Part shown: piece by piece, positions 59,859-60,622 of the stretch
Numbering within the stretch: the first letter of the stretch is position 1
Layout: every line of letters begins with the position of its first letter
DNA from: a virus
Taxonomy: Duplodnaviria > Caudoviricetes
Length of the DNA: 64,000 nt
IMG/VR virus record: IMGVR_UViG_2895767234_000001
Location: 7,555 to 71,554 of that record
Strand: one strand, 5' to 3'
The notes under the pieces: model-generated
Seen by the model: only the letters and a program-made list of their open reading frames with translations
The model's database searches: none
Told to the model about the DNA's origin: nothing
Position numbers and translations under genes: made by a program

Positions 59859-60446
59859 ATGCCGAAACGAAAGAGCACCGAAGCGCCGGACAATGTGACG
59901 ACCGCCGAGAATCGCGGCCAGATGCTCCGGCACTTGATCTCTCGCACGGGCAAGAATCTGACCGTGTTCCAGCAAGAAGCGCAGCTGCCTCGAAGCACCC
60001 TGAACGCCCTCCTGGATGGCACGAATGATGTCATCAAGGCAGAAAAAAGGACAGCCCAGGCCATTCAACTGGCGCTCGGCATGTACGACGACGATGTGAT
60101 CGAAGCGCTTGGGCTCCCGCCTGAAGTTCAGCGCAACTGGTACACGGCGCGTCCCGCGCCATTCGGCCATGGCGACTACGTCCTGGATGAGCACCGCCAC
60201 TTGATCCGCCTGGATCGCCCCTTAATGGGCGACGTGGTGCTGCCGGCAGAAACCCTGGTGACCATCGACACGACCACGCGCGATTACGGCATTCAGCTGG
60301 TCAAACTGGTGTCCGGGGAGTTTTTCGCCATGAAAAGTGGCCCGGCAGCGTCAGCTGCCGGGCGCGTCATCGGTCGCTTGTTGTCCGCGGACTTCGGCGC
60401 TGTGCTACCAGTTGACGTGCCGCTGCAAGAGCATGCACAGAACTGA
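59859..60446 (+). CDS. CI-like repressor (HTH plus degenerate S24-like C-domain, 195 aa)
   Basis: GAGGAG RBS; divergent from the cro-like gene; N-terminal HTH FQQEAQLPRSTLNALLDG. Confidence 0.75.
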   Translation: MPKRKSTEAPDNVTTAENRGQMLRHLISRTGKNLTVFQQEAQLPRSTLNALLDGTNDVIKAEKRTAQAIQLALGMYDDDVIEALGLPPEVQRNWYTARPAPFGHGDYVLDEHRHLIRLDRPLMGDVVLPAETLVTIDTTTRDYGIQLVKLVSGEFFAMKSGPAASAAGRVIGRLLSADFGAVLPVDVPLQEHAQN

Positions 60447-60564
60447 AAGTCGCACTGTAAACAGAACCATCCAGCTCGGGGTGAAATTTGCCGCCACTGG
60501 AGGCCAGGGCCAGCCGTTCCTGCTCGTTGATGAGGGTTTCAAGTCTGTGAGGGGTTGAGTTCAT
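60367..60564 (-). CDS. Possible small ORF/antisense transcript overlapping the cI 3' end (AimX-like position)
   Basis: GAGGT RBS; TAGGAT -10 at 60583-60588; 80-nt antisense overlap with cI. Confidence 0.45.
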   Translation of the reverse strand: MNSTPHRLETLINEQERLALASSGGKFHPELDGSVYSATFSSVHALAAARQLVAQRRSPRTTSDR

Positions 60565-60594
60565 TGGAACCTCGGTCAGCGCATCCTAAACAAA

Positions 60595-60622
60595 ATGCCG
60601 CTGTGAGGCGTCACAACTGCGT
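60595..60622. promoter_or_regulatory. Imperfect 28-bp palindrome, candidate receptor-binding site
   Basis: ATGCCGCTGTGA-GGCG-TCACAACTGCGT (9/12 arm symmetry, core TGTGA/TCACA). Confidence 0.5.

Follow-up and report, generated by a model that had tools for sequence, protein, structure and literature searches.

A 65-codon gene on the minus strand, which we call X, follows the genes of a tetratricopeptide-repeat (TPR) receptor and of a CxxC propeptide and converges on a repressor-like gene, C, in a 64,000-nucleotide stretch of viral DNA (IMG/VR record IMGVR_UViG_2895767234_000001, positions 7,555 to 71,554; hereafter the window, with coordinates counted from its first letter). Judged by sequence comparison across lineages, X genuinely codes for a protein; it would serve as output gene of a predicted peptide-signalling module, and its promoter looks activator-dependent and class II-like, with a conserved direct repeat upstream of a −10 box that lacks a −35 consensus. 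The reading that we favour, at a probability of roughly 0.55, is that X encodes a small antirepressor protein resembling AimX of the arbitrium phages, expressed from this activator-dependent promoter as the output of the module.

Gene order and conservation of the X protein

We compared the window with contigs of relatives (designated by L numbers), reading nine further lineages together with the IMG/VR contig L020. The receptor is rare: only three close homologues, at 45–48% identity, were found among 5.8 billion clustered proteins, and an exhaustive search of 1.8 billion representatives returned 79 members of the receptor family, nearly all of ~480 aa. Searches with the receptor or C found no relatives in GTDB species genomes or GenBank phages, and searches of IMG/VR and JGI metagenomes by peptide patterns added none; the relatives came from protein collections, and the single IMG/VR contig L020 was retrieved through the DNA motif of the repeat. 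In every lineage read, the receptor is followed by a CxxC propeptide, a small open reading frame (ORF) and a convergent C homologue (179–195 aa), and, wherever the contig is long enough, by a divergent helix-turn-helix (HTH) gene after the C homologue. A preliminary description of the window had seen in the small ORF an AimX-like output directly downstream of the peptide gene, and had noted its 65 codons and its 80-nt overlap with the convergent gene; direct reading bears out the codon count and the overlap. The position is also that of aimX: X shares the strand of the receptor and propeptide genes, follows them, and faces a repressor-like gene from which a Cro-like gene diverges.

In the window, X starts 68 nt past the stop codon of the propeptide gene, and a small ORF of 60–69 aa stands right behind the propeptide gene in all ten lineages. 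The frame is open in each of them, at identities of 20–58%, with receptor identity going down to 25%. The alignment of X runs over its full length, L8 and F40 being invariant and E16, L20, G33 and R57 nearly so, and the protein is predicted to form a helix-strand-helix with a basic tail. Among seven lineages, the pairwise identity of X (23–58%) is comparable to that of the receptor (36–48%) and of C (27–56%). When the six frames of the non-overlapping part were compared over three deep lineages, the called frame alone was stop-free in all three and held the most invariant residues (10 of 38), the other frames having 3–8 and stops in at least one lineage. Of the 38 codons, 22 vary at the first position, 23 at the second and 31 at the third, which is the most variable; the proportion of synonymous differences (pS) exceeds that of nonsynonymous ones (pN) in two of three deep, saturated pairs, and the three differences between L001 and L002 are all synonymous. 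The GC content of X in the relatives is gene-like over the three codon positions (0.75/0.43/0.75). The motifs LETL, DGSVF..F and AR.L.A..R are kept where X does not overlap C; L008, whose overlap spans only 32 nt, still retains the C-terminal helix motif AR.L.A..R, which is therefore not a shadow of the coding constraint on C.

X was called independently by gene callers on eight contigs, and profile searches find the family only beside these receptors. X has no match in Pfam (E up to 0.1), PHROG (E up to 0.01) or the ESM Atlas, and the PDB gave nothing convincing (one Cas2 chain, E 0.012). Note that in L003 the called ATG of the X homologue falls within the −10 box (TAGGATG; 1929–1949), and that a GTG at 1950, 4 nt past GAGGT, fits the family alignment better.

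A conserved direct repeat in the X promoter region

Behind the propeptide gene, the window presents in order the direct repeat, a 19-nt spacer, TAGGAT, GAGGT and the ATG of X (Table 1). A −10 box TAGGAT lacking a consensus −35, a GAGGT ribosome-binding site (60573..60569), a transcription start near 60576 and an overall activator-type look had all been proposed in the preliminary description. The first two are read directly in the sequence; at 60576 there is indeed an A, 7 nt past the −10 box, which matches the predicted start in terms of sequence geometry; and the activator-type look is upheld by the conserved repeat, the missing −35 and the conserved TANNNT. No TTGACA-like hexamer lies 16–18 nt upstream of TAGGAT, and a consensus promoter scan, which called the promoters of C, of the Cro-like gene, of the receptor and of the rightward genes, did not call the X site, as fits the missing −35 box.

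The repeat, TGTTACGC-AGT-TGTGACGC, occurs once in the 71.5-kb provirus record, for a chance expectation of ~0.12 matches per window, and would occupy about −50 to −32 relative to the predicted start, as in class II activators. It is conserved in eight lineages (the window, L001, L007, L003, L006, L009, L008 and L020), whose receptors are 30–48% identical, with the consensus TGT(T/G)AC(G/A)C, 2–3 nt, TGT(T/G)ACGC and a period of 10–11. In all eight it stands 19–20 nt from TANNNT, across spacers of unrelated sequence, and the −10 variants found at this position in the window and its relatives are TAGGAT, TAGATT, TAGCAT, TATTTT, TAAAGT and TATCAT. In most lineages TANNNT precedes the start codon by ~13–18 nt, with GAGGT 4–6 nt ahead of the start; L001, L007, L003 and L009 have GAGGT at the spacing of the window, and L006 has AGAGGT. 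In L008 and L020 only 8–10 nt separate the −10 box from the ATG, so that the predicted mRNA would have little or no leader, as expected of a genuine start site. Leaderless mRNAs are common in Deinococcus, and the spacing in these two lineages agrees with this.

The promoter unit moves with X. The distance from the propeptide stop to the repeat varies from 6 to 288 nt; in L007 (7649–7935), a close relative of L001 (receptor identity 89%), ~270 nt are inserted between the propeptide gene and the promoter unit, and in L006 a good terminator, separate from the promoter unit, is found upstream of the repeat. Overall, the site combines the features of a sigma-70 class II-like promoter: a −10 box, no −35 box, a conserved site abutting the −35 region and a fixed spacing.

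The site proposed in the preliminary description, a 28-bp imperfect palindrome over the −35 position (60595–60622), does not stand. It shrinks to a 7-pair stem, GTTGTGA/TCACAGC, followed by ATTTTGTTT, and a search with a 6-base seed found no inverted repeat in 60595–60622. The terminator scan lists this hairpin, the run behind the 7-pair stem being AUUUUGUUU; the folding energy of the 38-nt segment is −10.9 kcal/mol (z-score −1.46), and 19 of 200 shuffles fold equally well. In the relatives, the spacers are unrelated sequences with z-scores of ~0: no hairpin is found in L006, L008, L009 and L020, those of L001 and L003 have another sequence and poor U-runs, and the terminator of L006 sits outside the spacer. 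We thus rejected the palindrome as a regulatory site, since it is not conserved and no better than shuffles, and likewise the spacer hairpin as a covarying RNA element; the conserved element is the direct repeat. In the window, the hairpin may serve as a weak terminator of the receptor–peptide operon within the promoter spacer. No known RNA family was found in 59400–62400 at E up to 1.

Table 1. Features of the module in the window and positions of the propeptide genes in the relatives
Feature	Position	Strand	Description
Tyrosine recombinase	54948-55979	-	best GenBank-phage matches: Thermus thermophilus phages Lalka8, Lalka27a, Lalka27b
Cro-like XRE HTH gene, 70 aa	59483..59695	minus	Pfam HTH_3 2.6e-10; PHROG transcriptional regulators; divergent from C
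Extra TGTTACGC copy (GCGTAACA on + strand)	59776..59783	minus	3 nt upstream of the TTGACG −35 box of a promoter-like site before C
C, repressor-like, 195 aa	59859..60446	plus	putative N-terminal XRE-type HTH, C-terminal beta-rich domain
Terminator-like hairpin, 10 pairs (9 G-C), then CACTTTTCA	60340..60363	minus	within C, 4 nt past the X stop
X/C convergent overlap, 80 nt	60367..60446	both	end of X against the 3' end of C
X, 65 codons	60367..60564	minus	ATG 60564, stop 60367; AimX-like by position
Ribosome-binding site GAGGT	60569..60573	minus	4 nt ahead of the X ATG
Predicted transcription start, A	60576	minus	7 nt past the −10 box, 12-nt leader; from geometry
−10 box TAGGAT (TANNNT)	60583..60588	minus	no −35 consensus upstream
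Hairpin GTTGTGA-CGCC-TCACAGC (60617..60600) + GGCATTTTGTT	60589..60617	minus	terminator scan; window-specific
Direct repeat TGTTACGC (60626..60619)-AGT-TGTGACGC (60615..60608)	60608..60626	minus	period 11; candidate activator site
Propeptide gene, 36 aa	60633..60743	minus	signal-peptide-like hydrophobic N-terminus, C-terminal DPCLGCYL
TPR receptor, 481 aa	60770..62215	minus	possibly RRNPP-like fold, no N-terminal HTH, C-terminal domain ~370-481
Propeptide gene, L001	1645-1770
Propeptide gene, L003	1734-1859
Propeptide gene, L006	1597-1713
Propeptide gene, L008	1537-1659
Propeptide gene, L009	1634-1750
Propeptide gene, L020	7439-7570
Propeptide genes, L023, L024, L025			also present

Receptor, propeptide and candidate binder of the repeat

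The propeptide gene begins 26 nt past the receptor gene and encodes a candidate secreted peptide, as judged from its sequence. The propeptides of all ten lineages end in CxxC (DPCLGC, DPCPGC, RPCYGC, PPCVTC, SCVKC, QPCPRC), and no part of the signal is better conserved than the two cysteines, though the receptors are only 25–48% identical.

The receptor may share the fold of the RRNPP receptors, a TPR-like superhelix such as those of Rap, NprR, PlcR, PrgX or AimR. In the structural alignment, AimR matches from its residue 71 onward to residue 1 of the receptor model; the N-terminal HTH of AimR is therefore missing from the receptor. Its repeats are followed by a C-terminal domain of ~110 residues, made of two short strands and five helices, which is net positive in 78% of the family (median +3 versus −7 for the rest of the protein). 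The top structural match is MalT, with which the receptor shares the order of sensor and then C-terminal domain. The receptor has no match in Pfam at E up to 0.1 or in PHROG at 0.01; its profile matched only designed or consensus TPR proteins in the PDB, and a BFVD fold search returned generic repeat proteins only.

A conserved motif, TGTACATC, covers the Cro-side promoter, the C transcript start and the rightward promoter, and plausibly accounts for the two HTH proteins of the module. With these two assigned to TGTACATC, elimination and analogy make the receptor the best candidate for the binder of the TGTTACGC repeat, and we infer no more than this candidacy. The preliminary description, which presented the peptide-free receptor as the activator, was overstated in this respect: the receptor has neither an N-terminal HTH nor a recognisable DNA-binding domain, and position and analogy are what speak for it. 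An RDRM/DdrO box (radiation/desiccation response motif) as DNA-damage input was set aside, the element here being a direct repeat and not a 17-bp palindrome.

Arrays of three to five TGTTACG(C) units also occur in five low-GC IMG/VR phage contigs unrelated to the window (L014 933–976, L015 158–201, L021 3440–3483, L022 2928–2971, L011 3929–3972), where they resemble iterons or sites bound by a regulator; homologues of the receptor, X, C and Cro are all absent from these contigs.

The C gene and the convergent overlap

C has no match in Pfam or PHROG. Its features in the ESM Atlas point to HTH_3/Peptidase_S24/LexA-like clusters, and the profile of its family gives weak PDB matches to immunity repressors, lambda cI and DdrO. 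Of the name cI given to this gene in the preliminary description, these leads support, weakly, an XRE-type repressor; C is the probable target of X. The divergent Cro-like gene looks leaderless, with a −10-like CATACT ending 6 nt ahead of its ATG (59695–59741), and an inverted repeat TGTACATC-N11-GATGTACA spans the −35 box and the spacer of its promoter.

Within C, a terminator-like hairpin follows the X stop in the window, and a comparable hairpin with a U-run lies 45–85 nt past the X stop in L006; the other relatives have weak ones only. With these hairpins, the X transcript would stop ~25–90 nt past the X ORF and would cover only ~110–150 nt of the 3' end of C. On the plus strand, the terminator scan found no terminator after C.

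RNA-library contigs over the module

Two sludge RNA libraries from different studies contain contigs 100% identical to the window over 59856–60092, 60388–60697 and 60776–60931. These pieces cover the 5' part of C, the segment 60388–60697 and the 3' end of the receptor gene, the uncovered parts being uninformative. One piece with adapters at both ends, 60543–60677, crosses the predicted start of X. Contigs across the start may stem from transcription of X itself, from read-through of the peptide gene, from read-through of C past its stop or from DNA carry-over, which are not separable without strand information.

Proposed mechanism and alternatives

In the antirepressor reading, RNA polymerase would need a protein on the repeat, in a class II-like position, to fire the X promoter. 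This protein would most likely be the peptide-free TPR receptor, bound through its positively charged C-terminal domain, and binding of the peptide would switch the receptor off. The X protein would then bind C and so free the Cro-side and rightward lytic promoters from repression, in the way that AimX acts on AimC in Bacillus phages. The overlap of the X and C 3' ends, by RNA pairing or polymerase collision, would contribute an auxiliary effect at most.

Several observations weigh against this reading. On the side of the receptor, AimR homologues are recognised by an N-terminal HTH plus a TPR domain, a combination that the receptor does not show, and a search with residues 370–481 from seven lineages matched no known DNA-binding family in Pfam or among PDB sequences (one sub-threshold HTH_22 match, E 0.022). 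Direct repeats are unusual for RRNPP regulators, the sites of AimR being inverted. The additional 8-mer beside the −35 of the C promoter, which L001, L007 and L009 share in this location, which L006 has in degenerate form and which L003 and L020 lack, indicates that the binder may also control C, a poor fit to a simple AimR. The three most distant lineages have X with a different upstream element, namely one GTTACRC 2 nt ahead of GTGGCATAMT in L024 and L025, and a palindrome CTTGAC-N4-GTCAAG in L023. On the side of X, no similarity to known antirepressors was found in the Pfam, PHROG, PDB and ESM Atlas searches; the idea that X copies a pairing domain of C was rejected, as hhalign of X versus C gave no similarity; pN is about equal to pS in one deep pair, the window versus L003; and the case for X binding C is one of synteny and analogy. 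Finally, the RNA-library contigs span the predicted start (60539–60697), as assembled sequences devoid of strand or ends.

One alternative concerns the receptor, which might be Rap-like and not bind DNA, acting instead on a protein partner, possibly X or C, while a host response regulator, C, Cro or X would occupy the repeat. Winged-helix response regulators such as PhoB bind direct repeats of 11-bp period in place of a −35 box, and the geometry found here resembles such sites; moreover, the motif is unchanged although the receptors have diverged to 30% identity, it recurs at the C promoter, and TGTTACG arrays exist in unrelated phage contigs. We nevertheless hold this arrangement to be rather unlikely, given that the repeat is unique to the X site in the record and co-occurs with the receptor in eight lineages, that TGTACATC already explains two HTH proteins, and that the receptor carries an extra conserved, positive C-terminal domain in the MalT-like order. 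A different alternative leaves the promoter aside: X would be the third gene of the receptor–propeptide operon, reached by read-through, and the repeat would serve another purpose. The three genes do stand close together on one strand, the hairpin of the window would terminate only weakly (z-score −1.5), and contigs of both RNA libraries cross the predicted start; these contigs are, however, strandless, so that C read-through or DNA may account for them. Read-through is also hard to reconcile with the fixed geometry of repeat, TANNNT and start codon in eight lineages, with the leaderless spacing in L008 and L020, and with a unit that stays with X across the insertion in L007 and behind the good terminator in L006, and we regard it as highly improbable.

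Two further alternatives bear on the product rather than on the promoter. The transcript could act mainly as RNA and lower repressor synthesis, either by base-pairing to the C mRNA at its 3' end or through polymerase collision, with the ORF secondary. An overlap of 17–80 nt is retained in 10 of 10 lineages, antisense action had been proposed earlier for aimX of B. cereus-group phages (as cited in bioRxiv 10.1101/2025.11.23.689978), and with no plus-strand terminator found after C the two transcripts must meet, which favours such an action. The overlap is nonetheless limited to the last 6–27 codons of C, terminator-like hairpins stand soon past the X stop in the window and L006, the conservation of the X protein reaches beyond the overlap, and the spacing from ribosome-binding site to start is conserved. 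In the Bacillus precedent, recoding of the antisense overlap had no effect, whereas a stop codon in aimX abolished signalling (bioRxiv 10.1101/2025.11.23.689978). Since X forms a conserved protein family and the precedent acts by protein, antisense RNA as the main mechanism is improbable; of the preliminary description, which saw in X an AimX-like output firing antisense into cI, the kind of output is retained and the antisense mode as its main action is not. The other alternative, a chance ORF antisense to the end of a high-GC gene, is close to refuted. High-GC DNA yields many spurious ORFs, the GC content at third positions is only 0.62 in the part of the window X outside the overlap, and X belongs to no database family; against this stand a frame of the same length in ten lineages, at receptor identities down to 25%, with conserved residues and ribosome-binding site, and the independent gene calls on eight contigs.

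Relation to known systems

The closest counterpart in layout is the extended arbitrium module (phi106, phiW23, Wbeta, BMBtp14 and Waukesha92-like), reported in ~75% of Bacillus arbitrium systems (Kabel et al, 2025; bioRxiv 10.1101/2025.11.23.689978). In this module, AimX is a protein of 29–80 aa whose gene may overlap aimC; by binding to the repressor AimC it prevents this protein from oligomerising, and the AimX proteins described are too divergent for family models (bioRxiv 10.1101/2025.11.23.689978). Both modules have the same gene order and strands (aimR-aimP-aimX / aimC / aimL), a small ORF that may overlap the 3' end of the convergent repressor gene, diverges more quickly than the majority of genes and belongs to no family in the databases, and a divergent Cro-like HTH gene leading the early operon. 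The components, by contrast, show no sequence homology, the described AimX proteins not having been compared directly. C, at 179–195 aa and with a large C-terminal domain, exceeds AimC (80–140 aa). The receptor differs from AimR in having no N-terminal HTH and in its additional C-terminal domain, a direct repeat serves as candidate cis element and no LexA-type box was seen, the propeptides end in CxxC, and the host is probably of Deinococcus/Thermus type instead of Bacillota.

The arbitrium systems of SPbeta and phi3T (PMC6536502, PMC10769878) resemble the module in that a TPR receptor of peptide-binding fold is followed by its propeptide gene, that one site, under the control of the receptor there and putatively so here, separates this gene from a small output gene, and that the output, by prediction in the present case, promotes lysis. 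Their AimR binds spaced inverted half-sites through an N-terminal HTH, whereas here there is no HTH and a direct repeat; AimX of phi3T acts on MazF and the host, while the layout found here, facing the repressor, is of the extended type. In phage Rap-Phr pairs, of which phi105 Rap in complex with its peptide (PDB 8rte) is an example, Rap targets response regulators of the host, and no dedicated output gene downstream faces the phage repressor; an additional ~110-aa domain at the C-terminus also sets the present receptor apart.

At the level of the promoter, an analogy lies outside peptide signalling. The lambda CII promoters PRE and PaQ have a poor −35, TTGC-N6-TTGC repeats spaced by about one helical turn, and run antisense into a switch gene. 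The X promoter is alike in its poor −35, turn-spaced direct repeats and antisense run. It differs in that the module has no CII homologue, that the −35 region is preceded and not straddled by the repeat, that its product belongs to a conserved protein family, and that its effect would probably be pro-lytic instead of pro-lysogenic.

Peptide-guided lysis/lysogeny (arbitrium, RRNPP) is described only for Bacillota and their mobile elements, and no paper linking it to Deinococcus was found in the literature consulted. The design known from Bacillus phages is met here with unrelated proteins, a new cis element, an HTH-less receptor and a phage probably outside Bacillota. We tentatively raise the possibility, itself doubtful, of a peptide-communication switch of Deinococcus/Thermus type, in which the HTH-less TPR receptor would read the TGTTACGC repeats through a new C-terminal domain and drive an antirepressor family. 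If true, the arbitrium design would have arisen independently or diverged very deeply, a CxxC peptide being the signal. Should the module work as we read it, a receptor with a secreted peptide and a small antirepressor facing the repressor would be a general wiring reached with unrelated proteins. The new receptor architecture and the defined 19-bp cis element would then be directly testable, most readily through the output gene with its single promoter, its small product and its putative target, and small unannotated ORFs at the 3' ends of repressor genes would merit routine attention.

Phage type and occurrence

The GC content is 65.7%. The tyrosine recombinase matches those of the T. thermophilus phages Lalka8, Lalka27a and Lalka27b (~70 kb) at 34% identity over 88%, and no receptor homologue was found in these three phages. 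The GC content and the recombinase matches point to a temperate phage of Deinococcus/Thermus type, without being proof of it. The 100%-identical contigs of the RNA libraries show that the phage, or one nearly identical to it, is present in samples of activated-sludge type.

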